In this document: positions 2,071 to 24,155 of the stretch, piece after piece
How the letters are laid out: each line of letters begins with the position of its first letter
Numbering within the stretch: the first letter of the stretch is position 1
Source of the DNA: Candidatus Aenigmatarchaeota archaeon
GTDB lineage: Archaea > EX4484-52
Assembly: GCA_023137195.1 (NCBI GenBank)
Contig: JAGLPV010000034.1
Coordinates: 1-25,289, forward strand
Reading direction: 5' to 3'
DNA length: 25,289 nucleotides
Translations under genes and position numbers: made by a program
The notes under the pieces: model-generated
What the model saw: only the letters and a program-made list of their open reading frames with translations
Told to the model about the DNA's origin: nothing
Databases searched by the model: none

Positions 2071-2694
2071 TTATTTGAAGTTGATGTAAGGCAATCCTGC
2101 CGCAGTTTCTTTAATTTTCTCTTCATTCTTCTGTAAAATTGCCATTGCATCCCAAAGACCATTCAAAAAAGCCTGCCTTCTTCCTTCAAGCATGTCAAAC
2201 TCAACAACATGTTCACCATATCGGATAACTTTTTGGGCAAGGTCTATATCAAATTCGGTTGATGGATTTTGTTTAACATACTCTGCCAATTGAGTTATTT
2301 TTTCAGTAGGCACGATTATTCCGACCAGACCTAAACTTGCGCAATTGCCTGCAAAAATCTCTGCAAAACTCCCGGCGATTACAGCATTAATTCCAAACCT
2401 GTGCAATGCCTGGGGTGCGTGCTCTCTTGAAGAACCGCAGCCATAATTGGCACCGGCAATAAGTATTGTCGCCCCCTTATATTTTTCATCATTCATGGGA
2501 TGTTCTTCTACAGTTTCTCCTTCTTTGAATCTTTCATCAAAATACAAATACTCTCCCATTTTTTTGAATGTGATTTCTTTCATGTATCGGGCAGGAAGTA
2601 TATCATCTGTATTTTGATCATTTGCAGGTTTTGGTATAGCGATTCCTTTTATATTGGTTATGACCTTTTCAGGTATTTTAAATTCGTCCATCAT
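2071..2694 (-). CDS. leuD: 3-isopropylmalate dehydratase small subunit
   Basis: NTDDILPARY, NYGCGSSREHAPQAL and SFAEIFAGNC motifs; GGAGGAGG SD; overlaps the leuC stop. Confidence 0.95.
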   Translation of the reverse strand: MMDEFKIPEKVITNIKGIAIPKPANDQNTDDILPARYMKEITFKKMGEYLYFDERFKEGETVEEHPMNDEKYKGATILIAGANYGCGSSREHAPQALHRFGINAVIAGSFAEIFAGNCASLGLVGIIVPTEKITQLAEYVKQNPSTEFDIDLAQKVIRYGEHVVEFDMLEGRRQAFLNGLWDAMAILQKNEEKIKETAAGLPYINFK

Positions 2695-4100
2695 AATGAT
2701 TCCTCCTCCAGATATTTTCTTGGGTCGGTTATTTTTCCCTCTATCGCTGTGGCGGCAGCCGTAATCGGACTCATCAAATGCGTCCTTCCTATTGGACTTC
2801 CTTGTCTGCCTTTGAAATTCCTGTTCGATGTAGATGCACTTCTTTGAGTTCCCTCTAATTTATCTGGGTTCATTCCAAGACACATAGAGCATCCTGGGTG
2901 TCTCCACTCTGCTCCCGCATCCACAAATATCTTGTCTAATCCTATTTGTTCAGCATGGCGTTTGACAGCTTCAGAACCAGGCACAACCAAAGTTTTTACA
3001 GAAACCTTTTTGCCTTTTAAAATCTTTGCAGTGGCTTCCAAATCGCTTAATCTTCCATTGGTGCAGGAACCAATAAATACAACATCAACAGGAGTTCCCT
3101 GTACTTCTATTCCTCCTTCCAGTCCGATGTATTCCAAAGCATCCTCTGCTTCTTCTTTTTTTTTATCTGTAAAATCATCGGGTTCGGGTATTTTTTCATC
3201 AATTGCGATTGCCTGTCCAGGGTTCACACCCCATGTAACCATTGGCTTTACTTGTGAAACATCAATGCTCAATATATCATCGTACTCTGCATCTTCGTCT
3301 GATGCAATAGATTCCCAGTATTCTACAGCTTTTTCAAAATCCTCTTTTGGAGCATAATGTTTGTCTTTCAAATATTGGAAAGTTGTTTTGTCCGGGTTTA
3401 CATATCCTGAACGAGCGCCTCCCTCTACTACAAGATTGCATAAAGTCATTCGCTCTTCCATGCTCATGTTGTCAACTACATCTCCGCTAAATTCATATGC
3501 AAAGCCAACTCCTCCTTCAACACCTGTTTTTTTAATCATATAAAGAGCTAAATCCTTTGCAGTAACTCCTTCCGAAAGAATTCCGTTAAATTTTACGCAT
3601 CTTACTTTCAACTTGTCCATTGCCATAGTCTGTGTTGCAAGAACGTGGCTAACCTGTGTTGTTCCAATGCCAAATGCAAGCACTCCAAAAGCACCGTAAG
3701 TGCAGGTATGACTGTCGCCGCATACAACTAATTGACCGGGACATATCAATCCCAGTTCAGGATATATAACATGACACACGCCCTGCTTTCCTGAGTCCGA
3801 ACCAAAATAAGTTATGCCAAATTCTTTTGTATTATCTTCAATTGTTTTTGTCATCAATTCCGCCTGTTCATCCTTAAATGGTCTTGAACAATCATCTGTA
3901 GGAATGACATGGTCTGTTACTGCAAATGTAAGTTCCGGATGCTTTGCATTAAGCCCTCTTTCCCTTAACATTTCAAATGCCTGCGGACTTGTAACTTCGT
4001 GCATCATGTGCCTGCCTACAAATATCTGAGTCTGTCCTGTCGGTAATTTCCCGACAATATGGTTTTCCCAGATTTTGTCATATAAAGTTCCTTTGGACAT
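2691..4100 (-). CDS. leuC: 3-isopropylmalate dehydratase large subunit (bacterial type)
   Basis: TLYDKIW, HEVTSPQAF, GDSHT, IGSCTNGR, PGCSMCLGMNPD and STSNRNFKGRQG motifs. Start moved from the track's TTG at 4133 to ATG 4100, which follows an AAGGAGG SD. Confidence 0.97.
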   Translation of the reverse strand: MSKGTLYDKIWENHIVGKLPTGQTQIFVGRHMMHEVTSPQAFEMLRERGLNAKHPELTFAVTDHVIPTDDCSRPFKDEQAELMTKTIEDNTKEFGITYFGSDSGKQGVCHVIYPELGLICPGQLVVCGDSHTCTYGAFGVLAFGIGTTQVSHVLATQTMAMDKLKVRCVKFNGILSEGVTAKDLALYMIKKTGVEGGVGFAYEFSGDVVDNMSMEERMTLCNLVVEGGARSGYVNPDKTTFQYLKDKHYAPKEDFEKAVEYWESIASDEDAEYDDILSIDVSQVKPMVTWGVNPGQAIAIDEKIPEPDDFTDKKKEEAEDALEYIGLEGGIEVQGTPVDVVFIGSCTNGRLSDLEATAKILKGKKVSVKTLVVPGSEAVKRHAEQIGLDKIFVDAGAEWRHPGCSMCLGMNPDKLEGTQRSASTSNRNFKGRQGSPIGRTHLMSPITAAATAIEGKITDPRKYLEEESL

Positions 4101-4101
4101 T

Positions 4102-5196
4102 TTATGCCTCCTTAACGTAATTGCAAGCTGCATCGGTTAATTGGTCAAGGGTTTTCTCTTTGTATTGCGGATTTCTTACATTTTCAAGCGCAGCATTTTT
4201 TATCGCCTCAGCTGCTTTTACCTCGCCAACCTGCTCAAGCAACATTGCATAAGACAAAAACGCAGCTTCCGGCTTTACCTGCTGGATTAAAGATGCGTCG
4301 TATTTCCCGTCAGCACCATACCATTTGTCCGGAGCAGTCCCGTGGATTGGTTCAAACATTGAAGGAAAGCTTCCTGTTGGATTTATATTTCCTGACACTG
4401 CTGTTCCGATACCCCCTTGTATAATAGCACCTGCATCTGTTGCAATATCCCCGAACATGTTTTCTGTCAATACAACATCAAACTGTTTTGGGTTAATAAG
4501 CATCTGCATAAGGAAATTGTCAATGTGCATGTATCTTACATCAATATCCGTCCTGTTTTTATATTCTTCAAAAACCCTTTGCCATGGACTTGCGGCATAT
4601 ACCAGGACATTTGTCTTGAACACAAAATGCATCACCGGCTTGTCTGCTTTTTTTCTTTCAACTGCTCGCTTTAGGGCAAATTCAGCTAATCTCTTTACGC
4701 CTTTGTATGTGCATTTCATTATCTGATATCCTGCTTCTTCATCCGTCCCTTTTTTTTCAATCCATCCGGCATCAACATAAAGTCCTTCTGAATTTTCCCT
4801 GCATATCTCGAAATTGATATCTTTGGCTGTTTTTCCAACTATTACAGAAGGAACACCGTCCGGCAAAATTACCGGTCTTAAGTTAACATACTGGTCAAAT
4901 GCCTGCCTTAGTTTCAGCAATATCCCGACTTCCAATATTCCCGGCTTAATTTTTCCCGGGTCGCCGATAGCTCCAAGAAAAATCTGGTCGTATTTTTTTA
5001 GCTCGTCAAGTTCTTTTTGACCAAGCTCTTTCATGTCGTGCTTTATGAAATAATCAGCATTATAATCAAAGCGTGTGTGCTGAATTGGTCTTGTTAACTT
5101 GTTTTCTGCGGCTTTTACAACTTTCAATGCGGCATCTGTAACTGTTATCCCGTTAAGGTCCCCTGGGAGTACTGCAATGTTGTGATAATTTTCCAT
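4102..5196 (-). CDS. leuB: 3-isopropylmalate dehydrogenase
   Basis: [44 protein letters not shown] and [10 protein letters not shown] motifs; directly upstream of leuCD. Confidence 0.9.
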
Positions 5197-5206
5197 ATTA
5201 TTTCGA

Positions 5207-5240
5207 GGAGGGTATTTTTTTATAGTTTTACATACCTCCC
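5207..5240 (-). promoter_or_regulatory. Imperfect inverted repeat enclosing a TATA-like box upstream of leuB
   Basis: Minus strand reads GGGAGGTAT-gtaaaacTATAAAAAa-ATACCCTCC. TATAAAAA (5224-5217) lies 20 nt before the leuB ATG. Confidence 0.5.
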
Positions 5241-5335
5241 ATATTCTCTCTGCAAATAAAAGTATAGATTACATGGTATCTTAAAAGCAATTTTGATTAC
5301 ACCAGAGAGGAAATAACGAATAATACAATCCTTTG

Positions 5336-5374
5336 TTATACAATAGTGAGCAGAACCAAGCGGAGTGAAAACAT
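5336..5374 (-). CDS. Putative BCAA-rich leader peptide MFSLRLVLLTIV (an in-frame upstream ATG at 5386 adds MGDV)
   Basis: ATG follows GGGAG. 7 of 12 codons are Leu/Val/Ile (4 Leu). It lies 140 nt upstream of leuB on the same strand. Confidence 0.55.
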   Translation of the reverse strand: MFSLRLVLLTIV

Positions 5375-5424
5375 AACATCTCCCATGCAACTAAAAGGAG
5401 GGGATGTGTATGACACCACCCCTA

Positions 5425-6252
5425 CTAGAAATAAATCTCAGAAAATTTGTTCATGAGCTCTTTTGTTGTTGAACCAACACCACCATCACCAATCTTTGTT
5501 TTATCTATTTGAACAACAGGAACAATCTTTTTTGTTGTGCCCGTGATAAACACTTCATCTGCTTTTTTCAGTTCATTAAGAGTAAGTATATCTTGAGATA
5601 CAGGGAAGCCAATATTTGTTGCCATTTCAGCAACTTTTAGTGCTGTTACGCCAGGTAAAACATTTTGTGATGGCGTTTTTATCTTTTTGTTTTTTATTGC
5701 AAATATATTAAAAGTACATCCCTCTCGGACAGTGCCATTTTCTTCTACAAAAAGTGCATCGTCATAGCCTCCTTTTTTGGCGTTCAAAAATGCAAGTACT
5801 GATGGCATAAAGCTCAAATTTTTTGTTTGTGGAAATACGCGAAGAGTATTAGTAGTTTGCAATTTTATTCCCTGCTCGTATTCTTGCTTATCTAAAAAAT
5901 CGATTTGGGAAGAAAAAATAATCAGATTTGGTTTACATGTTTCACTTGAGTAGATAGGAATATCCTTTTCTCCACGAGTAATTGTTATTCTTATACGTCC
6001 ATAGTTATGATTGTTTTTTTGGATTGTTTCCTCAATTAGATTAATCAATTCTTTTTTTGACCAGGGAATTTTTAGATATATTTGATTACAACCATCTAAC
6101 AATCTATTAATATGTTCTTCTAGCCAAAAAATTTGACCGTTGATTGCTGCAATAGTATCAAAAACACCATCTCCATAGAGTAAGCCGTGATCAAATACAG
6201 AAATCTTGGCTTCTTTTTCATTAACAAATTTTCCATTTATACAAACTATCAT
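5425..6252 (-). CDS. Class IV PLP-dependent aminotransferase (IlvE/D-amino-acid transaminase/PabC family), substrate uncertain
   Basis: DHGLLYGDGVF, EEHINRL, RITITRG, catalytic K in QTKNL, EG..FN, LPGVT and DEVFITGT motifs; AAGGTGA SD; TAG TAG double stop. Confidence 0.85.
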   Translation of the reverse strand: MIVCINGKFVNEKEAKISVFDHGLLYGDGVFDTIAAINGQIFWLEEHINRLLDGCNQIYLKIPWSKKELINLIEETIQKNNHNYGRIRITITRGEKDIPIYSSETCKPNLIIFSSQIDFLDKQEYEQGIKLQTTNTLRVFPQTKNLSFMPSVLAFLNAKKGGYDDALFVEENGTVREGCTFNIFAIKNKKIKTPSQNVLPGVTALKVAEMATNIGFPVSQDILTLNELKKADEVFITGTTKKIVPVVQIDKTKIGDGGVGSTTKELMNKFSEIYF

Positions 6253-7774: not shown

Positions 7775-9607
7775 TCAACAACTCTTATTATACAACAGAT
7801 TGGCTCCTTCCTCAAATGCCTCAATACTTGCAACAAGAATATCCGGGCTGGTTCCCATCGCAATTACAGACACATTATTTTTTTCATCCTTTACAGCCAT
7901 TTTAATATCTACAACAGCATCAGCATGCTTGGTATTTATTTTTACCTGGTAATCTGTCAAGGCATAATTCATATTGTTTTTGGCAAGAACTTTCTGGAAT
8001 GCTTTAATCAAAGCATCTACCGGACCGACACCGTCAGATGATTCTTCATATTCTTTGTTTTCGTATTCCAGCTTGATATTTGCAACAGGTTTTTCCTTTT
8101 TACTCGCAGTTACGCCAAAGTCAATAATTTTTATTGTTTTTTCTTTCCCTTTTCGTATGCTGTTTTCTACAATCATCTGCAAATCAGACCGTTTTATTTC
8201 TTTTCCTTTGTCAAGGAAAGATGTTATCTGATCTCTTGCATTGACTAAATCCGAATTCATTATATCAACATCAAACTCGATTTTTACAGTTTTCTTTAAT
8301 TGCTCTTCTGTTGGAATCTTGTCAAACAATATTTTTTTGTCTTCTGCATCTGTATTTGCAGAACAAATCTGGTAGAATTTCTTGTCCAAAAACCTGTCCA
8401 CTTCCGAATCCACAGGGTTAATTACAGGGGATGTCGGAAGCACTTTCAATACAGATGTAGGGTCTTTCAAGCCAGCGCCGGTCATTACAATTACAATTTT
8501 TTCATCTTTGTTTACCTTTTTCATCTCTACTAATTTTTGCAGTGCTGCAAGACCTGTTGCGGCAGAAGGTTCCACGAAAATAGATTCTGTTTTTGCCAGG
8601 AGTTTCTGGGCATTGAGAGTTTCTTCATCTTTCACATCCAGTGCCATGCCATTGGAATCATAAATTGCTTTCAGGATTTTTTTCCCGTCTAATGGTTCGC
8701 CTACGCATATGGCAGAGGCAACAGTAGCTGGTTTGTCCTGTATTTCGTAATTCATTGTTTGTTTTTCATAAGCGCACACAACCGGGTTTGCCCCGCTTGC
8801 CTGGACGCCAATCATCTGCGGAAGAGAGTCAATAAACCCGAACTTCTTGTATTCTGTAAACCCTTTCCATATTGCAGAAGAATTTGTCCCGCACCCGATA
8901 GGGATGATAAGTTTGTCCGGAGCCGTCCAGTTCAATTGTTCTGCAATTTCATATGCCTGGGATTTTTGCCCTTCTGCCCTGAACGCATAATCGCCGCATA
9001 AATAAAAATCATGCTTTTGGCTCAGATTAATTGTTAATCTTACTGCATCTGCATAAGTTCCTCTTATCTGGATTAATTTTGCCCCGTAAGAAAGAGTCTG
9101 CGCCAGTTTTCCAATCGGTGTTCCTTCAGGCACAATCACATAGCAGGGAAGTCCTGCTTTGGAGGCAAAGGCAGAGACAGATGCTGCCATATTTCCTGTC
9201 GATGCGCAACAGACAGCTTTTTTCCCAAGTTCAAGCGCTTTTGTTATCTCGACCATCGTTCCCCTGTCCTTGAAAGCTCCTGTTGGGTTCGCCCCTTCAT
9301 ATTTAATATACAGATGATTTAGTCCAAGCATTTTTCCAAGAGTTTTACATTCATACAAAGGAGTATTCCCCTCGTTTAAACTCACTATTTTGCTCATATC
9401 CTCAATAGGATAAAAATTAAGATATTTCAGGCTGCTGATTGGCGCAGTCTTAATTAGATGCATGTTTAATTTTTCAGTGATTTTGTCATAATCATACACT
9501 ACATCAAGAGCACCACCGCAGTCCATACAATTGGAAGAGGTCTCTTCTTCTTTCCATTCCTTTTTACAGTCAACACATATTAGTTTATATAATTTTTTAT
9601 TTTCCAT
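7775..9607 (-). CDS. thrC: Threonine-synthase-family PLP enzyme fused to the LeuA/CimA subdomain II and allosteric (LeuA_dimer) domain
   Basis: N-terminal CxxC..CxxC, LNEGNTPL, NPTGAFKDRG (PLP Lys113), ASTGN, RAEGQKS, EPSAA and TGAGLKDP. The C-terminal ~120 aa carry GVGPVDA, LTDYQV and GTSPDILVASIEAF. The symbol indicates family only; the reaction is uncertain. Confidence 0.85.
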   Translation of the reverse strand: MENKKLYKLICVDCKKEWKEEETSSNCMDCGGALDVVYDYDKITEKLNMHLIKTAPISSLKYLNFYPIEDMSKIVSLNEGNTPLYECKTLGKMLGLNHLYIKYEGANPTGAFKDRGTMVEITKALELGKKAVCCASTGNMAASVSAFASKAGLPCYVIVPEGTPIGKLAQTLSYGAKLIQIRGTYADAVRLTINLSQKHDFYLCGDYAFRAEGQKSQAYEIAEQLNWTAPDKLIIPIGCGTNSSAIWKGFTEYKKFGFIDSLPQMIGVQASGANPVVCAYEKQTMNYEIQDKPATVASAICVGEPLDGKKILKAIYDSNGMALDVKDEETLNAQKLLAKTESIFVEPSAATGLAALQKLVEMKKVNKDEKIVIVMTGAGLKDPTSVLKVLPTSPVINPVDSEVDRFLDKKFYQICSANTDAEDKKILFDKIPTEEQLKKTVKIEFDVDIMNSDLVNARDQITSFLDKGKEIKRSDLQMIVENSIRKGKEKTIKIIDFGVTASKKEKPVANIKLEYENKEYEESSDGVGPVDALIKAFQKVLAKNNMNYALTDYQVKINTKHADAVVDIKMAVKDEKNNVSVIAMGTSPDILVASIEAFEEGANLLYNKSC

Positions 9608-9618
9608 TTTAACACTCC

Positions 9619-9643
9619 GAGGACAAAAATTAAATTTGTCCTC
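9619..9643 (-). promoter_or_regulatory. 9-bp perfect hairpin between the ridA stop and the thrC SD
   Basis: GAGGACAAA-(7 nt)-TTTGTCCTC, immediately followed on the minus strand by GGAG-tgttaaa-ATG. Confidence 0.5.
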
Positions 9644-10032
9644 TATCGAATAATAATCTCTGCTATTGCGTCAATCTCTATTTGTGCACCTTTTGGAAGT
9701 TTTGCGACACAAACAGTTGAACGTGCAGGTTTGCTTGTAGAAAAATAAGAAGAATATATTTCATTTACTTTAGAAAAATCGTCAATGTTTGTCAAGTATA
9801 TTGTTGTTTTGACCACCATTTCAAGACTGCTATCGGCGGCCTCAAGAACAGCTTTTATATTGTCCAGAACCTGTTTTGCCTGGACTTCAATGCTCTCATC
9901 CATGAATTCCTGTGTCTGTGGGTTTATTGCAATCTGACCGGAAAGATAAACAATATTGTTTATTTTCACAGCCTGTGAATAAGGACCAATTGCATCCGGT
10001 GCATTACTGGTGCTTATTATTTCTTTGGACAT
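9643..10032 (-). CDS. ridA: RidA family reactive enamine/imine deaminase
   Basis: APDAIGPYSQA, SGQI, VVKTTIYL, F..VNEIY, PARSTV (catalytic Arg) and LPKGAQIEIDAIA motifs. Confidence 0.93.
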   Translation of the reverse strand: MSKEIISTSNAPDAIGPYSQAVKINNIVYLSGQIAINPQTQEFMDESIEVQAKQVLDNIKAVLEAADSSLEMVVKTTIYLTNIDDFSKVNEIYSSYFSTSKPARSTVCVAKLPKGAQIEIDAIAEIIIR

Positions 10033-10084: not shown

Positions 10085-11797
10085 ATGAAAGGAAGTCAGA
10101 TGATTTTAAATACACTGAAAGACAACGGAGTAAATACAACTTTTGGATATCCCGGTGGATCAGTAATCCCTTTGTTTGATGCAGTCTATAATGACAATGA
10201 GTTCAGGAATATTCTTGTCAGGCATGAGCAGGCAGCAGCCCATGCGGCAGACGGGTATGCGAGGGCATCCGGCAATGTCGGCGTTGCGATAGCAACAAGC
10301 GGTCCGGGAGCGACAAATTTAGTGACAGGACTTGGCACAGCATATTATGATTCTTCTCCCGTACTTGCTTTCGGAGGACAGGTTTCTGTAAATTTCTTAG
10401 GCAAAGATGCATTCCAGGAATCAGACATGATGGGAATAACCCTCCCAATCACAAAACACAATTTCCAGATAAGAAACCCTGATGATATAAATGCAACAAT
10501 CAGGAAAGCAATCAAGATAGCAACAAGCAGGAGACCGGGACCAGTATATGTAGAACTGCCAAAAGAATGCCAGGTCGGAGACATCACAAAACCAAATCCG
10601 AAAACAGCAGAGGTTCTAAATTGCGGTCCTATGCCAAGAGCAAAAAAAGAAGACATAAAAAAACTCGCAGACGGTCTGCTTAATACTCAAGCCCCTCTTA
10701 TTTTGGTAGGAGGAGGAGTTTTATTAGCAAATGCATCTGGGCAGATAAATAAACTCATAGAACTGCTTAACATCCCTGTGGCAACAACACTCATGGCAAA
10801 AGGAGTAATCCCGGACAATCATCCTCTTAACCTCGGGATGATAGGTATGCACGGCAGGAAGAGCGCAAATTACGCAATTATGAATGCTGACCTGATAGTT
10901 GTTTTGGGATGTAGGTTTTCAGACAGGATTACAGGAGATACAGATGCATTTGCAAGAGATGCAAAGATAATACAGATTGACATTGACTCATCTGAAATAA
11001 ACAAGAACATTGATATTGACATGTCCATAATAGGAGATGTAAAATCAATCCTTGATGATCTTTTAGCAGTCCTTAAAATGAAGATAAAATCGCCGAAACA
11101 GACAGATTGGTCAAAGAAGATGAAAAAGATAAAACAGCTTTGTTGTTGCGATATAGATATTGGAAAAACTCCAATTGACCCGAGGAAAGTGATAAAGGAA
11201 ATAAATGCTGCAATAAAAGACACGGATATTGTCACAACCGGCGTAGGACAGCACCAGATGTATGCCGCTCATTTCCTTGAAAGAAAATACCCCAGGACAT
11301 TTATTACCAGTGGAGGATTCGGCACAATGGGATCCGGATTCCCTTTTGCAATAGGTGCAAAAATAGCAAAGCCGGATGTTGAAGTTATTGACATAGACGG
11401 GGACGGCTCGTTTATAATGAACTCACAGGAGCTTGCAACATGTAAGGAAGAAAACATTAAAGCAACTCCTGTAATTTTAAACAACAATTATCTTGGAATG
11501 GTAAGGCAGTGGCTGGAAATATTTTACGGCAGGAGGTATTCACAGGTGGGTTTGGGGAATACCACGGATTTTGTAAAGATGGCAGATGCTTACGGATTGG
11601 AAGGGATATTGGTGGAAAAGCCGTCTGAAATTAAGGATGCTCTGAAAGAGGCAATGGGAAATGATGAGACTACTATTGTAAATATTATGATAGAGAAAGA
11701 GTCCAATATACTGCCTATGCTTCCGCCGGGAGGGACATTAAAAGAGGCATTTGGTGGGTGCATGGAACAGGCAGGATATGAGTGCTTTGAGAAATAG
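10085..11797 (+). CDS. ilvB: Acetolactate/acetohydroxyacid synthase large subunit
   Basis: FGYPGG, RHEQ, TSGPGATN, GQV, AFQE, MIGMHG, RFSDR, VGQHQM, TPP motif GDGS...LNN and GMVRQW. Confidence 0.97.
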   Translation: MKGSQMILNTLKDNGVNTTFGYPGGSVIPLFDAVYNDNEFRNILVRHEQAAAHAADGYARASGNVGVAIATSGPGATNLVTGLGTAYYDSSPVLAFGGQVSVNFLGKDAFQESDMMGITLPITKHNFQIRNPDDINATIRKAIKIATSRRPGPVYVELPKECQVGDITKPNPKTAEVLNCGPMPRAKKEDIKKLADGLLNTQAPLILVGGGVLLANASGQINKLIELLNIPVATTLMAKGVIPDNHPLNLGMIGMHGRKSANYAIMNADLIVVLGCRFSDRITGDTDAFARDAKIIQIDIDSSEINKNIDIDMSIIGDVKSILDDLLAVLKMKIKSPKQTDWSKKMKKIKQLCCCDIDIGKTPIDPRKVIKEINAAIKDTDIVTTGVGQHQMYAAHFLERKYPRTFITSGGFGTMGSGFPFAIGAKIAKPDVEVIDIDGDGSFIMNSQELATCKEENIKATPVILNNNYLGMVRQWLEIFYGRRYSQVGLGNTTDFVKMADAYGLEGILVEKPSEIKDALKEAMGNDETTIVNIMIEKESNILPMLPPGGTLKEAFGGCMEQAGYECFEK

Positions 11798-11809
11798 ATT
11801 AATAAGATT

Positions 11810-12301
11810 ATGAAAACATACATTATTTCAATACTGGTCGCAGATGAGCCAGGCGTTTTATTGAAATTATGCGGCTTGTTTGTCAGGAGAGGTTTTAATA
11901 TCAACACAATCGCTGTCGGCTCAACCGAGAAAAAAGGACTTTCCAGAATAATGATAACCCTTAATTCTGATGGGAAAAAGATAACCCAGCTAAAAAAGCA
12001 ATTAATCAAGGTAATAGATGTGGTGGGCGTCTCTGATTTGACAGAAAATACAATAGTAGAGGAATTGTGCTTGATTAAACTGGGCATAAACGGGGAAAAA
12101 GAAAGGGATGAAATCATAAATAATGTAAATCTATTCAAGGCAAAAATAATAGACATAAACAAGACAAACATAATCATCCAGATAACAGACCGACCGAACA
12201 AAATCAAGAATTTTATTGACGTTTTATCCGATTACGAGATAGTAAAGATTACAAGAACAGGAACCGTAGCAATCAAGGACATCGGAACTAATAATAATTA
12301 A
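11810..12301 (+). CDS. ilvN: Acetolactate synthase small regulatory subunit
   Basis: ACT domain (DEPGVL, LFVRRGFNI), KQL.K.IDV, EL.LIK and C-terminal RTG.VA; lies between ilvB and ilvC. Confidence 0.92.
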   Translation: MKTYIISILVADEPGVLLKLCGLFVRRGFNINTIAVGSTEKKGLSRIMITLNSDGKKITQLKKQLIKVIDVVGVSDLTENTIVEELCLIKLGINGEKERDEIINNVNLFKAKIIDINKTNIIIQITDRPNKIKNFIDVLSDYEIVKITRTGTVAIKDIGTNNN

Positions 12302-12313
12302 ATAAGGATTAAT

Positions 12314-13309
12314 ATGGAAGAAGCAAAAATATATCACGACGCAGATGTAACAACATCTGTTTTAGAAGGCAAGACAATAGCTGTAATTGGCTACGGTGCA
12401 CAAGGCAAAGCTCAGGCAAACTGCATGAAAGATTCAGGATTAGATGTGATTGTAGGTTTAAGAAAAGATGGTGCTTCATGGCAAAAAGCCATCGACGACG
12501 GGATGAATGTTGATGAAATAAGTGAGGCGGCTAAAAAGGCAGACATCATCCATATTTTAATACCGGACGAGATACAAAAGACTATTTACGATGAGCATAT
12601 CAAAGAACATGTTACAGAAGGAAAAGCAGTCAGTTTTTCCCACGGGTTTAACATCACTTACAAGCAGATAGCTCCGCCTCAAAATGTTGATGTAATTATG
12701 GTTGCTCCAAAATCCCCGGGGACAGAGGAAAGAAAAAGATACTTGGAAGGATTCGGAGTGCCGGGACTTGTTGCAGTTGAAAACGACTACAGCGGGAATG
12801 CAAAAGACACAGCTCTTGAGATGGCAAAAGCAATGGGTTTTACAAGAGCAGGAGTTTTTGAATGCACATTCAACCAGGAGACATATTCTGATTTATTCGG
12901 TGAACAGTGCGTACTTTGTGGCGGAATGACAGAATTGATTAAAGCAGGATTCGAGACACTTGTAAAAAGAGGATACCCTCCACAGATGGCATATTTTGAA
13001 TGTATGCATGAAGTGAAACTTATTGTTGACCTTCTTTATGAAGGAGGAATGCAGCACATGTGGCATGTTGTGTCGAACACAGCAGAATACGGCGGAAGAA
13101 CAGTTGGTCCAAAAATAATCACAGAAGAGGCAAAGCGGGAAATGGAAAAAGCATTGGACAGGATTGAATCAGGCGAGTTTGCAGAAGAATGGCTTAATGA
13201 ATACAGGAGTGGAAACAAAAATTTCAATGAACTGAGGAAGGCAGAAGAAAGCCACGAGATAGAGATTACTGGTGCAAAAATCAGGAAGTTGTTCGAAAAA
13301 AAAGAATAA
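12314..13309 (+). CDS. ilvC: Ketol-acid reductoisomerase (class I)
   Basis: IGYGAQG, GLR..GAS, FSHGFN, VAPKSPG, DLFGEQ.VLCGG, AYFEC.HE and SNTAEYG motifs. Confidence 0.97.
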   Translation: MEEAKIYHDADVTTSVLEGKTIAVIGYGAQGKAQANCMKDSGLDVIVGLRKDGASWQKAIDDGMNVDEISEAAKKADIIHILIPDEIQKTIYDEHIKEHVTEGKAVSFSHGFNITYKQIAPPQNVDVIMVAPKSPGTEERKRYLEGFGVPGLVAVENDYSGNAKDTALEMAKAMGFTRAGVFECTFNQETYSDLFGEQCVLCGGMTELIKAGFETLVKRGYPPQMAYFECMHEVKLIVDLLYEGGMQHMWHVVSNTAEYGGRTVGPKIITEEAKREMEKALDRIESGEFAEEWLNEYRSGNKNFNELRKAEESHEIEITGAKIRKLFEKKE

Positions 13310-13470: not shown

Positions 13471-13647
13471 ATGAAACCGGAAATGATTTTCTATATTACA
13501 GGAGGTTTTTTTGCAATCGCAACATTACTGTATTTTGCAGGAGAATACATTCTGCTGTTCGGGAAGGAAATCAAGCTGACAATCCTTTTGTGCCTGACAA
13601 TAATATTTTATTCAGCAGGAACTTTCCTTAAAATTAAAGACATGTGA
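13471..13647 (+). CDS. Small two-TM membrane protein, 58 aa (below the ORF-track cutoff)
   Basis: MKPEMIFYITGGFFAIATLLYFAGEYILLFGKEIKLTILLCLTIIFYSAGTFLKIKDM. TATATAAA lies 20 nt upstream; the stop overlaps the next ORF (GTGA). Confidence 0.75.
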   Translation: MKPEMIFYITGGFFAIATLLYFAGEYILLFGKEIKLTILLCLTIIFYSAGTFLKIKDM

Positions 13648-14486
13648 TTGATATGATAGGATTTGTATTTTTTATATTGTTTATTCCATTGCTTATAATT
13701 TTAGGTCTTGCTTATTTTCGCACAAAAAAGATTTATCCTCTTATGTATATTCTGTCGGCATTTTCATACATCATTACATTGGCTTATTTTATCGGTGCAT
13801 GGGGATTGAAAAAAGACGCGATAATTGCAACACTCGGGGTTTCAGCAATATTGCTGATAGCAATTGGTTATAATATTTCTCATTCAAAAAAACAGCATGA
13901 ATTAAAGCGCATAAAACGATATGGCATTATTTTACCCATTACAATAATTGTTTTTGCATCAATCATAGGTTCTGCAAATATTGGAATGGAGCGGCAGACA
14001 GACACAGTATCTTCTGTTAAATACAGCGAGATATTTTCAGACGAGAAAGGAGAGCTTTATAGCAATGCACTAGAAAACCAAGTGTTTCTCCAGACAATTA
14101 CAATTAAAAACAATTTCTTTCTTTCTGCATATCAAAAAATTCCAAAATACACCATTTGCTTTTATCCTTTAAATGAAAGCTGTGATGTTCATTCTTATCC
14201 AATGTATTATGAAAACAATAAATCTTTTTACAAAGATATTATTGAAATACTTCCTCGGTCTGAAAAAACAGTACAGATAAGAATTCCGAAATTGTATAAC
14301 TATGAAGATAGAATTGGTGCAAATATCGAGCCGGTGTTGGTCGGGCAGAGATATAAGGGATGCAATTACGATGAGATATTACTGGTTGACAGAAACCCTA
14401 ACGGAGAAAGAGATTACGGTTATGTTGAATGCAGTTCTTTGTCAAAAGAGCAGATAGATAGCGCAATTAAAATTGAAATCAATTAA
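13644..14486 (+). CDS. Hypothetical membrane protein, about 4 N-terminal TM helices plus a Cys-containing soluble domain
   Basis: Hydrophobic segments in aa 1-115 and a polar C-terminus with 4 Cys. The start may be ATG 13653. Confidence 0.75.
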   Translation: MIDMIGFVFFILFIPLLIILGLAYFRTKKIYPLMYILSAFSYIITLAYFIGAWGLKKDAIIATLGVSAILLIAIGYNISHSKKQHELKRIKRYGIILPITIIVFASIIGSANIGMERQTDTVSSVKYSEIFSDEKGELYSNALENQVFLQTITIKNNFFLSAYQKIPKYTICFYPLNESCDVHSYPMYYENNKSFYKDIIEILPRSEKTVQIRIPKLYNYEDRIGANIEPVLVGQRYKGCNYDEILLVDRNPNGERDYGYVECSSLSKEQIDSAIKIEIN

Positions 14487-14501
14487 TTCGTCAATAATGT
14501 T

Positions 14502-14948
14502 ATGGAATATGAAGAAGTAAAAAGAGGTCGCTCATTTATCCTGAAATTTGAACACAAGGATAATTTTCTGGACGAGTTATTGTCTTTTGTAAAAGAAAAG
14601 CAGATACGAGCCGGGAAAATTGAAATAATCGGCGCCTTAAAAAACGCAAAAGGTGCTGTTGGACCACAAACAGATGAACTCCCGCCGACACCAGTCATAA
14701 AAGAAATAAATAATGCGCATGAAGTTGTGGGCGTCGGGACAATTTTTTGGCAGGATGACGAACCAAAGTTACATCTACATTGCGCAATAGGGCATAAAGA
14801 TGATGCAAATGTAATATGCATCCGGCAAGATACAGAAGTCTTTATTGTAATCGAAGCAATATTGCAGGAATATGTAGAGACTACCGCAGAAAGAAAAATT
14901 GATGAGGAAATTAAGATGCCGCTTTTGAGTTTTGAACCCCTTCCTTGA
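14502..14948 (+). CDS. PPC/DUF296 domain protein (AF0104-like)
   Basis: IGAL, E..GVGTI, P.LHLH..IG (HxH Zn motif) and VFIVIE; typical length. Confidence 0.85.
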   Translation: MEYEEVKRGRSFILKFEHKDNFLDELLSFVKEKQIRAGKIEIIGALKNAKGAVGPQTDELPPTPVIKEINNAHEVVGVGTIFWQDDEPKLHLHCAIGHKDDANVICIRQDTEVFIVIEAILQEYVETTAERKIDEEIKMPLLSFEPLP

Positions 14949-15073
14949 CACTAATTTTGTAATTATGCAAACCCGCTTTATTTCTAATTGTGGCATATTC
15001 GCCATAATTAAATTTAGGATTATGTAATTTTTTATTCACACTACTTAATAAACTTAAACTGAAAAATAATATA

Positions 15074-16399
15074 ATGAATTTTCTGGAAAAATTATTTGGG
15101 AAAAGAGAAAAGACTAAAAGAACAAAAGAGACAGAAGAAAAACCACTCTGCGTAACAATAAAATTTGAGCAGGCAAACGCATTTCTTAAGGAGACTGCCG
15201 CCCCTTTCCTAGAATCAATAAATGACATGACAGACAGTGCCATAAAAAACATCAAAGACCATTTCAAAGACCTTGATGAGAACCTTGATGCTTTGGAAAA
15301 AGCAGTGCCTGAAGAACATGCAGAAGACAGACCAAGGAAACTTATGCTCGGCAACAGGGCTGCCTTTATAAGAAAAGTAAAAACATTTGAAAATAATATT
15401 GCCTTTCCATCCACAAAAGTGGTGCCGAAAATCAGGGAATTCTATAAATCTCTTATAATGGATATGAATGTACTGCTAAAAGATACACACAAAAACATCT
15501 ACTTTTCGAACATGCTTTTTCCTGATGAGATGGAAAAAACAATAGGCAGTTTAAGAGAGATGGGGCATATTGCAGACCAGTCGATAAAGGAGTTGGACAG
15601 CAACAAAGAAAAAATAGAGATGATTGAACAGGCGGAAAATAACATAAAAAAAGTGCATGACCTCACAACAAAAAAGAAAACTATTTTTCAAAGTCAAAAG
15701 AAAAGCAAAGAAAACATTAAAGAACTCCAAAGAAAGAAAGAAGAACTGATTAAAGAACTTGATTACCTCAACACCAGCGAAGAGAGAAAGACTCTGGGAA
15801 AAGAAGAAGAAAAACTTAAATCTCTTGAAGAAGAAATAGACAATATAAGAAACACAATAATCAATATGTTCTCGCCCCTGTCAAAGACCATGAAAAAATA
15901 TGAAAGAGACAGTGCAGGACTAAGCAAAGAAGAGAGAAATACGCTTTGCCTGTATATTGATTCGCCCGTAGAAGCATTAATTGGAGACAAGGATATGAAG
16001 ACTCTTGACAAGATAATTCTCAATGCAGAAAATATGATAAAAGAGGGAGGAATAACTCTAAAGGATAAAAAGCAGGAAGAAAAGATACTTCATCATATGA
16101 GCCGGCTAAAAAATCACGAAGAGTTAAAAGACATTCTTGTTGGTTATGAACGAACTAAAAGACAGGCAGAAGAGACAAGCAACTCTATAAAGGACATGAA
16201 TATAAGCGAAAGAATATCATCAACAGAGCATGAACTTGCGGCTTTAAATGAAAATATTGTGACAGAAAAAGAGAATATGGCAGGACTGGGAAAATCTATT
16301 CCTGAAGTCGATAATGAGATATTATTGAAGGTAAAAGAGCTGGAGAATGAACTAAGTGGGATTTCTGGGAAGGATGTGACGATGAGTATTGATTTATAA
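15074..16399 (+). CDS. Hypothetical K/E-rich coiled-coil protein
   Basis: 441-aa ORF with heptad-like K/E/L stretches; no Walker motifs recognised. Confidence 0.75.
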   Translation: MNFLEKLFGKREKTKRTKETEEKPLCVTIKFEQANAFLKETAAPFLESINDMTDSAIKNIKDHFKDLDENLDALEKAVPEEHAEDRPRKLMLGNRAAFIRKVKTFENNIAFPSTKVVPKIREFYKSLIMDMNVLLKDTHKNIYFSNMLFPDEMEKTIGSLREMGHIADQSIKELDSNKEKIEMIEQAENNIKKVHDLTTKKKTIFQSQKKSKENIKELQRKKEELIKELDYLNTSEERKTLGKEEEKLKSLEEEIDNIRNTIINMFSPLSKTMKKYERDSAGLSKEERNTLCLYIDSPVEALIGDKDMKTLDKIILNAENMIKEGGITLKDKKQEEKILHHMSRLKNHEELKDILVGYERTKRQAEETSNSIKDMNISERISSTEHELAALNENIVTEKENMAGLGKSIPEVDNEILLKVKELENELSGISGKDVTMSIDL

Positions 16400-16482: not shown

Positions 16483-18108
16483 ATGAAATCAGACATCTTA
16501 AAAAACAGCATAGAAACCCTTCCTCACAGAGCACTGCTGATGAGTGCGGGATTAAAAAAAGAAGACTTTTCAAAACCATTTATTGGTGTCGCAAACAGCT
16601 ATAACGACATAATCCCCGGGCATATTCATTTAAATGAATTAACCAAGGAAGTTAAACGCGGAATCAGGGATGCCGGCGGAGTTCCATTAGAATGGGGTGT
16701 CCCGGGCGTCTGCGACGGCATTGCAATGCATGTTGAAATGAGATTATCCCTTCCATCGCGAGACCACATTGCCGATAATATAGAAATAATGACATTAAGC
16801 CATTCCCTTGACGGATGGGTTGGAGTCACAAACTGCGATAAAATTACACCAGGAATGCTCATGGCAGCAGGACGCCTGGATTTGCCTTCGATAATCCTTA
16901 CTGGTGGACCAATGAAAGCAAATACTGGAGCTGACGGGAAGAAACACCACCCTATTGAAGGGTTTGGTATTGCCGGTCAGGTTCTGGGCGGAAAAATGTC
17001 AGAAGAAGAGGCAAACAAAATGCTTGATTGTATGGTTTGCGGCGCCGGATCATGCGTCGGTCTGTTTACTGCAAACACAATGGCAACAGTGACAGAGGTA
17101 TTGGGAATGTCTTTGACCGGCTGTTCAACAACACTTGCCATAGACCCGTTAAAGAAAAAGCAGGCATATGAGAATGGGGAAAAAATAGTAGAACTTGTAA
17201 AAAGCAATACAACTCCTTCTTCAATTATGACAAAGCAGGCTTTTGAAAATGCAATTATGGTCGATATGACGATGGGTGGAAGCACAAATGCAGTATTGCA
17301 TATCATTGCAATCGCAAAAGAATTGGGCATAGAAATTTCAACAGATTTGTTCGATGAAATTTCAAAGAATGCTCCAAATCTCTGCCATATAATCCCAGCA
17401 GGACCTTATGAAATGTCAGATATTGACAGGGCGGGTGGCGTTCCGGCAGTATTAAACAGGCTCAAAGATATGCTAAAAGACAGCCCGACAGTAAATTCAA
17501 AATCAATAAAGCAAATCGCAGAAGAGGGTCGCGTATCAGATGATGAAATAATAAGACCTTTAGACAATCCATATTTTAAAGAAGGAGGCATCGCAGTCCT
17601 GAAAGGAAATATTGCAGAAAGCTCTGTAATAAAACAAACAGCAGTATCACAGGATATGATGAAACATTCGGGACCTGCAAAGGTATATTGCACAGAAGAT
17701 GATTTGCTCCATGCAATAAGCGCAAAAAAAATCGCAGAGGGAGATGTTGTTGTTCTGTCTTTCCAGGGACCTTGCGGAGCACCCGGAATGCCCGAAATGC
17801 TCACCCCCACAGATGCAATCAAGGGAGCGGGATTCAAAAAAGTCGCCTTAATAACAGACGGAAGATTTTCGGGCGGAACAAGCGGACCATGCATCGGACA
17901 CATTGAGCCAGAAGCATATCTTGGCGGAAATATTGGTGCAATAAAAGATGGAGATATAATTGAAATAGACATCCCCAATAGGACGCTTGAAGTAAAATTG
18001 ACAGATGAACAAATAAAAGCAAGATTAAGTGAAGTAAAAACTCCGGAAAGAAAATTAAGCCCTTTTTTGAAAAAATACAGGGAAAACAATACACGAAAAA
18101 AAGAGTAA
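16483..18108 (+). CDS. ilvD: Dihydroxy-acid dehydratase
   Basis: KPFIGVANS, PGHIHL, VCDGIAM, CDKITPG, GSCVGLFTANTM, GGSTNAVLH, GP.G.PGMPEML and LITDGRFSG motifs. Confidence 0.97.
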   Translation: MKSDILKNSIETLPHRALLMSAGLKKEDFSKPFIGVANSYNDIIPGHIHLNELTKEVKRGIRDAGGVPLEWGVPGVCDGIAMHVEMRLSLPSRDHIADNIEIMTLSHSLDGWVGVTNCDKITPGMLMAAGRLDLPSIILTGGPMKANTGADGKKHHPIEGFGIAGQVLGGKMSEEEANKMLDCMVCGAGSCVGLFTANTMATVTEVLGMSLTGCSTTLAIDPLKKKQAYENGEKIVELVKSNTTPSSIMTKQAFENAIMVDMTMGGSTNAVLHIIAIAKELGIEISTDLFDEISKNAPNLCHIIPAGPYEMSDIDRAGGVPAVLNRLKDMLKDSPTVNSKSIKQIAEEGRVSDDEIIRPLDNPYFKEGGIAVLKGNIAESSVIKQTAVSQDMMKHSGPAKVYCTEDDLLHAISAKKIAEGDVVVLSFQGPCGAPGMPEMLTPTDAIKGAGFKKVALITDGRFSGGTSGPCIGHIEPEAYLGGNIGAIKDGDIIEIDIPNRTLEVKLTDEQIKARLSEVKTPERKLSPFLKKYRENNTRKKE

Positions 18109-18110
18109 TG

Positions 18111-18120
18111 TTTTTATAAT
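18111..18120 (+). promoter_or_regulatory. TATA-like box of ilvE
   Basis: TTTTTATAAT 19 nt before the ATG; no SD. Confidence 0.5.
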
Positions 18121-18139
18121 ATATTCAATAAAAAAGAAT

Positions 18140-19042
18140 ATGGAAAAACCAAAATCCGATTTTGTCTGGATGAATGGGAAATTCATAAAATGGCAGGACT
18201 CAAATGTCCATATAACAACACACGCACTGCATTACGGCTCAAGTATATTTGAAGGCATAAGATGCTACAATACAAAAAATGGTTCGGCAGTATTTAAATT
18301 AAAAGAGCATGTAAAACGATTTTTCGAGTCCGCAAAAATATACCGGATGGAAATTCCATACAGCAAAGAAGAAATCCAAAAAGCAATAACCGAGACTATT
18401 AAAAAAAACAACTTGAAAGAATGCTATATCCGTCCATTGGCATACAAAAATGATGAAGGAATGGGACTGAATCCCTTGAACATATGTGTTGATGTTGCAA
18501 TAATGGTGTGGTACTGGGGATCATACCTCGGTGACGGTGCAATTGACGTAAAAGTTTCCTCATGGAACCGGATGGCTCCAAATACATTTCCTGCGCTTGC
18601 GAAGGCAGGAGGTAATTATATAAATTCCCAGCTGGCAAAAATGGATGCAGTAATTAATGGTTATGATGAAGCAATAATGCTGAATACAAATGGTTTTGTA
18701 ACTGAAGGGAGCGGCGAAAACTTATTTTTAATAAAAGACGGCACAATCTACACACCTGCTCTTTCAGATTCCGTCCTTAAAGGAATAACAAGAGCTTCTG
18801 TTATGTGTATTGCAAAAGAGATGGGATACATTCTAAAAGAAGAAACAATCCCGCGCGAGATGTTATACATCGCAGATGAATTATTTTTCACAGGTACAGC
18901 CGCAGAAATTGCTCCAATAAAAAGCGTAGATAAAATAAAAATTGGAAACGGCAAAACCGGACCTGTAACGCAAAAGATAAAAGACAAATTCCTTTCTATA
19001 TTAAAGACAGGGGAACCAAAAGAATGGTTTGGTTTTGTTTGA
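18140..19042 (+). CDS. ilvE: Branched-chain amino acid aminotransferase
   Basis: HALHYG..IFEGIRCY, YIRPL, AKAGGNYINS, EGSGENLF, LKGITR and FFTGTAAEIAPI motifs; follows ilvD. Confidence 0.95.
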   Translation: MEKPKSDFVWMNGKFIKWQDSNVHITTHALHYGSSIFEGIRCYNTKNGSAVFKLKEHVKRFFESAKIYRMEIPYSKEEIQKAITETIKKNNLKECYIRPLAYKNDEGMGLNPLNICVDVAIMVWYWGSYLGDGAIDVKVSSWNRMAPNTFPALAKAGGNYINSQLAKMDAVINGYDEAIMLNTNGFVTEGSGENLFLIKDGTIYTPALSDSVLKGITRASVMCIAKEMGYILKEETIPREMLYIADELFFTGTAAEIAPIKSVDKIKIGNGKTGPVTQKIKDKFLSILKTGEPKEWFGFV

Positions 19043-23183: not shown

Positions 23184-24155
23184 CTATCTGATTTCGTCTC
23201 TTACTTCATCTGCCGCAAGGCACATATTCTTTAATTTAGCAAAGGCAATATCAGAGGGAAGCAGTTTAACGCCACAGTCCGGGTCAACATACACTTTTTT
23301 CGGCTCGACAATCTCAAATGCCCTGCGGATATTTTTCTTTATCTCTTCAACATTTTCCACGCGCCGTGTATGGACATCAAGACATCCGAAGCCGATATCT
23401 TTTGTATAGTCGTACTTTTTGAAAACTTCAACATCACAGAAATTTTTGTTTGCAAATTCAAAGTCGAACTGGTCTGTATTGAATTCCAGGATGTCAGGAT
23501 ATATCTTAGAATAATCCCCGTAGCATATATGTATCCCTGTGTATGCCTTGATTCCACGCGTTGCAATCTCTATTGAATTTTTCGCGATTTCCAATTCTTC
23601 CGGGTGCGTAGGGATTGCCGGGTCATCTATCTGGATATAATCTGCCCCTGCCCTGACAAGTGCTTTTAGTTCCTTGTTTATGACTTCAGCAAGCTCGTAT
23701 ATCGCCTCGTCTTTTTTGGAATAAAATTCATTAAAGCTCCAGTCAACAATTGTATATGGTCCTGTTATCGGGACTTTTATGCCTTTGCTTGTAATAGTTT
23801 TGAGGTATTTGTACTCAGGTATTGTCAACTCATCCCTGTATTTGAGTTTATCTACTATCGCGGGTTTTCTATAGTAGTTGTTGCCCCACACCCTAACATC
23901 GCCGTAGATTTTAAAGCCATCTATATGATCTGCAAAATATGATGTCATCTCATCTCGCCTCATCTCGCCGTCCCAGAGGATATCGATCCCTGCTAATTCC
24001 TGTTCTTTTACAACAGTTTTTATGGAATCCGTATAGGACTGTTCCAGGACTTTGTCCGAAACTCCGCCGTATTTATGATCTTTTATCATTTTATTGAGCC
24101 ATTTTGGTTTTGGATAACTGCCGACAATGGTTGTTGGTAATAGTTTTTTAGTCAT
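23184..24155 (-). CDS. metE: Cobalamin-independent methionine synthase, catalytic half (split MetE2)
   Basis: PTTIVGSYP, DGE.RR, TGPYTI, IQIDDPA and Zn ligands HIC, E(FAN) and PDCG. The ATG at 24155 follows a GAGGTGA SD. Confidence 0.9.
   Translation of the reverse strand: MTKKLLPTTIVGSYPKPKWLNKMIKDHKYGGVSDKVLEQSYTDSIKTVVKEQELAGIDILWDGEMRRDEMTSYFADHIDGFKIYGDVRVWGNNYYRKPAIVDKLKYRDELTIPEYKYLKTITSKGIKVPITGPYTIVDWSFNEFYSKKDEAIYELAEVINKELKALVRAGADYIQIDDPAIPTHPEELEIAKNSIEIATRGIKAYTGIHICYGDYSKIYPDILEFNTDQFDFEFANKNFCDVEVFKKYDYTKDIGFGCLDVHTRRVENVEEIKKNIRRAFEIVEPKKVYVDPDCGVKLLPSDIAFAKLKNMCLAADEVRDEIR

Follow-up and report, generated by a model that had tools for sequence, protein, structure and literature searches.

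Threonine synthase (ThrC), which converts O-phosphohomoserine to threonine, and the threonine dehydratase IlvA are both members of the fold-type II superfamily of pyridoxal phosphate (PLP) enzymes. ThrC works by 'product-assisted catalysis', in which the released phosphate steers the addition of water so that threonine is formed and not 2-ketobutyrate (2-oxobutanoate). IlvA carries out the first isoleucine-specific step and is under end-product allostery through a C-terminal, ACT-like domain (Thr_dehydrat_C). A different kind of regulatory domain, found in the citramalate synthase (CimA) of Leptospira, LiCMS, and in LeuA of Mycobacterium tuberculosis, sits on a DRE-TIM (HMGL-like) barrel. Here we describe a gene that joins such a domain to a ThrC-like enzyme, in 25,289 nucleotides of DNA from a Candidatus Aenigmatarchaeota archaeon (GenBank assembly GCA_023137195.1, contig JAGLPV010000034.1, positions 1 to 25,289; hereafter the window). 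The gene lies at positions 7775-9607 on the minus strand and encodes a 610-residue protein (P0001, hereafter the fusion) made up of a ThrC-derived PLP domain, LeuA subdomain II and a LeuA_dimer domain. Because of its active-site replacements, its ilv and ridA context and the gene content of the genomes that carry it, we read the fusion as a functional analogue of IlvA, an entry enzyme of the isoleucine branch built on a class-I ThrC scaffold, and we give this reading a probability of about 0.55.

Both halves of the fusion, and the reaction that we propose for it, are of known kinds. In plant ThrC, the dimer interface together with an extension at the N terminus makes up the effector site, with no transplanted LeuA domain involved. 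That plant enzyme, described as activated by S-adenosylmethionine (PMC9081730), resembles the fusion in being an allosteric member of the ThrC family; unlike the fusion, it is a true ThrC. A preprint describes weak threonine-dehydratase activity of Bacillus subtilis ThrC, which can rescue the loss of ilvA when derepressed (bioRxiv 10.64898/2026.09.15.751699), and the ThrCs of Thermus thermophilus and Microcystis are described as deaminating threonine in vitro (PMC12172450). The Microcystis aeruginosa enzyme, a ThrC-family protein like the fusion, is reported to form 2-ketobutyrate from threonine both in vitro and in vivo; unlike the fusion, it is still a threonine synthase, is cyanobacterial and, by that paper's description, has no LeuA-type domain (PMC12172450). 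Our literature searches, with supplements outside their reach, returned no published characterisation of the fusion or of a ThrC scaffold turned into a regulated entry enzyme of the isoleucine branch. This agrees with a preliminary description of the same DNA, made from the sequence without database searches, which knew of no characterised example. The family is common and is routinely annotated 'threonine synthase'.

Domain architecture

All parts of the fusion are encoded on the minus strand. Pfam places a PALP catalytic domain (PF00291) at residues 75-377 (positions 8477-9385; 243 bits, E 5.5e-72, cut-off 35) and a LeuA_dimer domain (PF08502), the allosteric domain of LeuA and CimA, at residues 470-605 (positions 7793-8200; 91.6 bits, E 5e-26, cut-off 24.9). 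The latter match covers model positions 1-130 of 131, and the same domain scored 95.3 bits in a genome scan. These were the two domains that the preliminary description had expected, and both are above cut-off. A linker and a helical region resembling LeuA 'subdomain II' occupy approximately residues 400-486 (positions 8150-8410), as judged from NCBIfam alignment and structural models. The NCBIfam LeuA models begin at residues 409-421 of the fusion and end at residues 600-608 (model positions ~305-505); because this span takes in the helices that precede the regulatory domain, the likeness to subdomain II holds. In the predicted structure these helices comprise residues 400-408, 411-416, 434-445, 451-466 and 473-485. 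At the N terminus is a four-cysteine ribbon (C11, C14, C27 and C30; positions 9509-9586), which is invariant in the fusion family and resembles the N terminus of PRK08197-type threonine synthase; the threonine synthase model NF006050 aligns to residues 4-391.

The earlier claim of a ThrC-family domain followed by LeuA subdomain II and LeuA_dimer is thus borne out by Pfam and NCBIfam matches far beyond chance, and the motifs on which it drew are present (GVGPVDA at residues 526-532, LTDYQV at 550-555 and GTSPDILVASIEAF at 585-598). The gene had also been given its right coordinates, with the minus strand left unstated. No match to the DRE-TIM (HMGL-like) barrel family PF00682 was found in P0001 by Pfam, the N-terminal partner of the regulatory module being PALP. 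The hidden Markov model match, the predicted fold and the predicted homodimer all support the claim that the module sits on a fold-type II PLP enzyme, unlike in LiCMS and LeuA. The fusion shares the PLP fold-type II superfamily with IlvA but differs from it in sequence, falling below both IlvA cut-offs (TIGR01127, 108.1 versus 378.75 bits; TIGR01124, 64 versus 411.3 bits). It also differs in its C terminus, where the Pfam scan detected no Thr_dehydrat_C domain and LeuA_dimer stands in its place.

Active-site residues

We compared the active sites of 75 fusions with those of 21 canonical ThrCs from fusion-bearing genomes (11 of class I and 10 of class II, the latter including the second ThrC of the window's own genome). 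Six positions are K, T, N, S, R and N in all 21 canonical ThrCs. At the first five of these, all 75 fusions have K113, M140, G205, D206 and R210; the sixth, position 239, is Cys in 51 fusions, Phe in 11, Val in 9 and Asn in 1 (72 of the 75 accounted for). The canonical Thr, Asn and Ser are thus replaced in every fusion by Met, Gly and Asp, respectively, and the canonical Asn at position 239 is kept in one of the 75. We also observed that the NSxNPxR loop of the fusions has one residue fewer and that GNAGN becomes GxGTN. The family-specific residues M140, A141, G205, D206, C239, G240 and T241 all stand where canonical ThrC residues do. The PLP Schiff-base lysine, K113 in the FKDRG motif, is present in all fusions and all canonical ThrCs compared.

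Counting along the alignment with 2ZSJ and subtracting 2 gives these six positions the Thermus numbering K61, T88, N154, S155, R160 and N188. We take T88, N154, S155, R160 and N188 to be the phosphate-holding site of Thermus ThrC; Omi et al. in 2003 and Murakawa et al. in 2011 reportedly described the site that holds the phosphate of the ThrC substrate. The invariant aspartate that now occupies this site speaks against a substrate that carries phosphate.

The nearest solved relatives of the catalytic domain are true class-I ThrCs, namely those of Aquifex (2ZSJ, 1e-78), B. subtilis (6CGQ, 3e-75), M. tuberculosis (2D1F) and T. thermophilus (1UIM), with E values of 1e-78 to 7e-68 over residues 61-400. 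The fusion has their fold-type II PLP domain and keeps the PLP lysine, R210 and the EGQK motif. It is unlike them in its ~210 extra C-terminal residues, in its occurrence in ilv operons and not hom-thrC operons, and in forming a clade of its own. Judged by these alignments, the catalytic domain is ThrC-derived yet not a canonical ThrC. The preliminary description had called it 'ThrC-like' and left its catalysis open; the evidence gathered here favours the formation of 2-oxobutanoate for isoleucine over threonine synthesis.

An alternative is that the fusion is a genuine ThrC, making threonine from O-phosphohomoserine, and that its LeuA-type domain exerts a branched-chain control that ties threonine supply to isoleucine demand. 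The active site speaks on both sides here. K113 and R210 are kept and the closest solved relatives are true ThrCs, but the fusions have lost four residues that every canonical ThrC of either class possesses, and one of the four has become Asp. The gene content of the host genomes, described below, bears further on this alternative.

Regulatory module

The full-length protein, modelled with AlphaFold2 on the basis of 35 family sequences, had a mean predicted local distance difference test score (pLDDT) of 84.1 and a predicted template modelling score of 0.72, with a low-confidence linker at residues 380-387. Modelled alone (41 sequences), residues 405-610 reached a pLDDT of 90.1. In a Foldseek search against the PDB, the best structural matches to this region were the regulatory domains of LiCMS and M. 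tuberculosis LeuA (3FIG/1SR9), which together made up the top 10. The top four were the isoleucine-bound LiCMS domain (3F6G/3F6H; E 1.4e-10 to 4.4e-10, template modelling score 0.83-0.88 on the target, root mean square deviation 2.2-2.6 Å, 28-29% identity), and M. tuberculosis LeuA came next with 167-177 aligned columns. A sequence search of residues 399-610 against the PDB returned the LiCMS domain as its sole significant chain (E 4.9e-7).

Prediction of two copies of residues 405-610 gave a score of 0.55 (runs 0.56, 0.55 and 0.55), and the best of three controls scored 0.00; solved LeuA/CimA dimers may, however, be remembered in this result. Of 30 solved pairs, 20 reached the calibration mark of the pair prediction, as did 1 of 23 single chains. 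The runs agreed in at least 93% of contacts, with a partner pLDDT of at least 79. The predicted interface comprises residues 494-504, 526-531, 550-557, 560-564 and 588-592, which include the equivalents of the LiCMS isoleucine pocket, and the model supports pairing through these pocket-equivalent residues.

For the pocket itself we used the LiCMS positions that we take to line it, with their numbering matched to the 3F6G alignment; Zhang et al. in 2009 reportedly identified these residues. Their equivalents in the LeuA_dimer domain of the fusion are V530, D531, L550, Y553, I557, A564, V566, P588 and I590. Seven are identical between the two proteins (D531, L550, Y553, I557, A564, V566 and P588, corresponding to LiCMS D431, L451, Y454, I458, A466, V468 and P493), whereas LiCMS Y430, T464 and Q495 are V530, A562 and I590 in the fusion. 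D531, L550, V566 and P588 are present in all 75 fusions and I557 in 72. In a LeuA-type comparison set of 25 rows, drawn from these same genomes, the position equivalent to 557 is Ala in 22, that equivalent to 566 is Ala or Gly in 20 and that equivalent to 588 is Thr or Glu in 20; the set includes two wrong-frame open reading frames (L108 and L110) and one duplicate (L115, the same as L082_LeuA), leaving 22 distinct valid sequences with these majorities unchanged. These residues modestly favour an Ile-type over a Leu-type pocket. Hidden Markov model scores give no effector assignment, as the C terminus scores best against LeuA (NF002086, 78.9 bits) and its nearest structure is a CimA. The CimA regulatory domain has been described as an autonomous isoleucine sensor, used alone as an engineered isoleucine biosensor (PMC13381585). 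The fusion may be under feedback control by a branched-chain amino acid, as the preliminary description had proposed.

We also observed LeuA-type sequences outside the fusion. In four related genomes of the phylum, LeuA-like frames (G051:C43, G073:C42, G075:C22 and G079:C113) contain one in-frame TGA each, which could reflect a pseudogene, a sequencing error or recoding. In two Patescibacteria genomes (G017 and G029), a free-standing LeuA_dimer protein of 137-138 residues is encoded directly upstream of a class-II thrC. These solo genes lie at L104:3186-3599 (minus strand, with thrC at L104:1840-3123, minus strand) and L105:3595-4011 (minus strand). The solo domain of G017 scores 146 bits against TIGR00977, aligning with the regulatory C terminus of citramalate synthase. 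Such a solo CimA-type domain may regulate ThrC in trans, or may be a split form of something else.

Distribution and phylogeny

Both Pfam domains are present in all 120 database homologues listed; these are 48-82% identical to the fusion at ~100% coverage and 605-671 residues long, and the named ones are all called 'threonine synthase' by their source databases. A scan of one genome per species yielded 540 relatives, from which 80 loci were kept for analysis, all aligning to residues ~1-609 of the fusion. As related genomes, these are non-independent samples. The closest kept relatives are from metagenome-assembled genomes (MAGs) labelled Nanohalarchaeota (77-78% identity). By record title, the fusion is also carried by Woesearchaeota, Iainarchaeum, Micrarchaeota and many Patescibacteria lineages, as well as by Methylomirabilota/NC10 (including Ca. 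Methylomirabilis), a Baltobacteraceae MAG and a Chlamydiae-labelled MAG. The ESM Atlas holds clusters with both domains, most commonly from Balneolota, which we treat as a lead only.

In a FastTree phylogeny of the catalytic domain, all 75 fusions formed one clade (SH-like support 0.82, stem 0.43), which stood apart from the class-I ThrCs of these genomes (11 sequences) and contained archaeal, NC10 and candidate phyla radiation (CPR) sub-clades. This pattern fits a single origin of the fusion.

Genomic context

The fusion gene is preceded, 35 bp upstream, by a gene for RidA, a Rid-family enamine/imine deaminase (9643-10032, minus strand; TIGR00004, 181 bits, cut-off 106). RidA-family proteins hydrolyse the enamine and imine products of PLP dehydratases such as IlvA, and RidA is likely to be a co-transcribed partner of the fusion. 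Divergent from ridA and the fusion are ilvB, ilvN and ilvC, which encode the large and small subunits of acetolactate synthase and ketol-acid reductoisomerase (10085-13309, plus strand). Beyond ilvC lie ilvD and ilvE, for dihydroxy-acid dehydratase and the branched-chain aminotransferase (16483-19042, plus strand). Downstream of the fusion, and on its strand, are leuD, leuC, leuB and a class IV aminotransferase gene (2071-6252).

We surveyed the context of the 80 loci by querying them with the window's proteins. In the 42 loci labelled as CPR or archaea, an ilv gene or ridA lay on the same strand as the fusion in 39, an ilv gene lay within 300 bp downstream in 26, and ridA was adjacent in 15. 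The usual order in these groups is fusion-ilvE-ilvD-ilvB-(ilvN)-ilvC-(ridA). The corresponding counts in the 26 NC10-labelled loci were 1, 0 and 0. The homoserine dehydrogenase gene hom was beside the fusion at none of the 80 loci (thrB was not among the queries). In two NC10-labelled loci (L028:1336-2529 and L067:1-498), another ThrC-like gene, which shares 33-35% identity with the catalytic part of the fusion, lies directly upstream of it on the same strand.

Several other genes of the window were recorded. Three open reading frames lie between ilvC and ilvD (13644-16399, plus strand); those of 280 and 441 residues are without a Pfam or NCBIfam match, and that of 148 residues has a PCC domain (PF03479). 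A putative cyclase/arylformamidase-like gene (PF04199; 6722-7342, plus strand) separates the fusion from the class IV aminotransferase gene and lies on the opposite strand to both. At 23184-25131 (minus strand) are tandem half-size MetE-like genes encoding 331 and 327 residues, the first of which passes NF003317 and the second of which is below cut-off.

Gene content of fusion-bearing genomes

Gene content was surveyed in 50 genomes of the 80 loci, of which most are incomplete MAGs, in which absences are weak evidence; the exception is the closed genome G028. None of the 50 reached the TIGR01127 cut-off for IlvA. In 41 of them the best match to this model was at most 142 bits and was nearly always the fusion itself (~77-129 bits). 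IlvC was present in 46 of the 50.

A second ThrC-family gene accompanies the fusion in 32 of the 50 genomes, and the fusion is the sole ThrC-family gene in 18. The latter group supports the reading of the fusion as a genuine ThrC. However, homoserine dehydrogenase (Hom) was not found in 15 of these 18 genomes, and ThrB was over its cut-off in none of five genomes tested, which argues that the substrate of such an enzyme would be absent. Moreover, a canonical ThrC is already present in the 32 others; in NC10 genomes its gene adjoins hom (for example, in G040 and G044), with the fusion located elsewhere. A genuine ThrC would also leave the source of 2-oxobutanoate unexplained where IlvA and CimA are missing. 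We consider it unlikely that the fusion makes threonine.

The closed chromosome of G028 (1.37 Mb) encodes IlvC, RidA and the fusion, and no Hom, ThrB, other ThrC, IlvA-like gene or HMGL-family gene (CimA included) was found on it. With this gene set, O-phosphohomoserine cannot be made and no citramalate route exists there. In the NC10 genomes G040 and G049, the HMGL family is represented by one gene each; these two genes, and their counterpart in G048, a larger NC10 genome, score above the cut-offs for 2-isopropylmalate synthase (TIGR00973, 755-767 versus 598.7 bits). The fusion is therefore the only visible candidate for a source of 2-oxobutanoate in these genomes.

The window's own genome is 85% complete and contains three PALP genes, encoding the fusion, TrpB and a 450-residue class-II ThrC that passes TIGR00260. 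It also encodes Hom, aspartate kinase and one LeuA that passes the 2-isopropylmalate synthase cut-offs. On its contig C4 (L002:2818-4029, minus strand), a 403-residue phosphoglycerate-mutase-like gene converges on the canonical thrC; homologues of this kind have been proposed as alternative homoserine kinases. Across 42 genomes of the phylum, IlvC was present in 11. A full-length fusion was found in 6 of these 11 and possible fragments in 2 more, compared with none of the 31 genomes without IlvC, and the IlvC-positive genomes had no IlvA-like match other than the fusion.

These patterns bear on a second alternative, in which the fusion is a phospho-lyase acting on O-phosphohomoserine or some other activated homoserine. 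Such an enzyme would yield 2-oxobutanoate, phosphate and ammonia directly, without threonine as an intermediate, and would be subject to feedback by isoleucine. The operon, RidA and the phyletic pattern support such an enzyme as well as they do an IlvA analogue, and its chemistry has parallels: 2-oxobutanoate is a known side product of ThrC, and mammalian THNSL2 is a ThrC-like phospho-lyase. R210 is kept, and Hom and aspartate kinase are encoded in the window's genome. By contrast, the remaining residues of the phosphate site are lost, with the invariant D206 there instead, and many hosts without Hom or ThrB, including the closed G028, cannot make the substrate. We regard a phospho-lyase as improbable.

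The window's genome also encodes, on contig C15 (3272-4297, plus strand), a 341-residue HMGL-like protein whose catalytic domain resembles those of 2-isopropylmalate, citramalate and homocitrate synthases and which has no regulatory domain. It reaches no NCBIfam family cut-off. As a citramalate route this gene is considered unlikely, its type being found in seven genomes of the phylum, six of them without IlvC.

It enters a third alternative, in which the fusion catalyses another fold-type II reaction (serine dehydration to pyruvate or β-replacement), or in which its C-terminal module serves dimerisation only, with 2-oxobutanoate supplied in some other way (citramalate, propionate carboxylation or methionine cleavage). 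This gene, the extra HMGL protein of ~530 residues in relatives of genus g2, and the existence of ThrC-like enzymes with different chemistry, such as the cysteate synthase 9k3c among the PDB matches, are in keeping with this alternative. The fusion nevertheless heads ilvE-ilvD-ilvB-ilvC operons repeatedly and tightly, its conserved pocket residues point to ligand binding beyond dimerisation, and most of the relatives that have the short HMGL-like type are without IlvC. Taken together, we judge a reaction or route of this kind to be quite improbable.

Proposed mechanism and its weighing

If the fusion is an analogue of IlvA, its K113-bearing PLP domain, lacking the ThrC phosphate site, would run the last steps of ThrC in reverse from L-threonine. 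L-Threonine would form an external aldimine, and β-elimination of water would then give PLP-aminocrotonate. Without a phosphate site to favour rehydration, 2-aminocrotonate/2-iminobutanoate would leave the enzyme and tautomerise, and the co-encoded RidA would hydrolyse it to 2-oxobutanoate and ammonia. The 2-oxobutanoate would then enter the pathway of IlvBN, IlvC, IlvD and IlvE. The LeuA subdomain II and LeuA_dimer module would dimerise, and the pocket at its interface would bind the end product, most likely isoleucine, leading to inhibition. So read, the fusion would resemble IlvA in its reaction, in taking the first isoleucine-specific step, in its linkage to ilv genes and RidA, and in end-product allostery through a C-terminal domain.

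Several observations weigh against this proposal. The fusion passes two threonine synthase cut-offs (TIGR00260, 274.8 versus 167.1 bits; NF006050, 309.3 versus 303 bits), which equally favours a genuine ThrC. R210, the equivalent of Thermus R160, is kept, and some anionic group could still bind; the phosphate-holding role of the Thermus residues is itself presumed. The dimer prediction may be a memory of solved LeuA/CimA dimers. The solo domain beside class-II thrC in G017 and G029 hints that true ThrCs may be regulated in this way, again in favour of a genuine ThrC. In 25 of the 26 NC10-labelled loci, no ilv gene or ridA was found within 10 kb and the fusion gene stands alone. Nine of the 50 fusion genomes have a short dehydratase-like gene, which scores 227-312 bits in G009, G019, G041, G043, G046, G047, G048 and G050 and is represented in G042 by two adjacent fragments of 108-142 bits. 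The 341-residue HMGL-like protein could in principle be a citramalate synthase, and the incompleteness of most of the MAGs lessens the weight of the absences.

Implications

Beyond the window, the chances are about even that these proteins constitute a widespread and so far unrecognised isoleucine entry enzyme, in which a ThrC scaffold without its phosphate site has acquired the isoleucine-sensing domain of LeuA/CimA and stands in for IlvA (and CimA) in CPR, DPANN, NC10/Methylomirabilota and probably other phyla. If so, evolution would have solved the regulated step of IlvA a second time and independently, by a natural conversion of a synthase to a lyase through deletion of a product-binding site. 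The LeuA/CimA regulatory domain would then be a portable sensor, able to govern an unrelated catalytic fold. Hundreds of genomes would be mislabelled with a 'threonine synthase' and would show a false gap in isoleucine biosynthesis. Metabolic reconstructions of methane oxidisers of the Methylomirabilis type, and those of many CPR and DPANN genomes, lack the first step of isoleucine synthesis, and the fusion would supply it.

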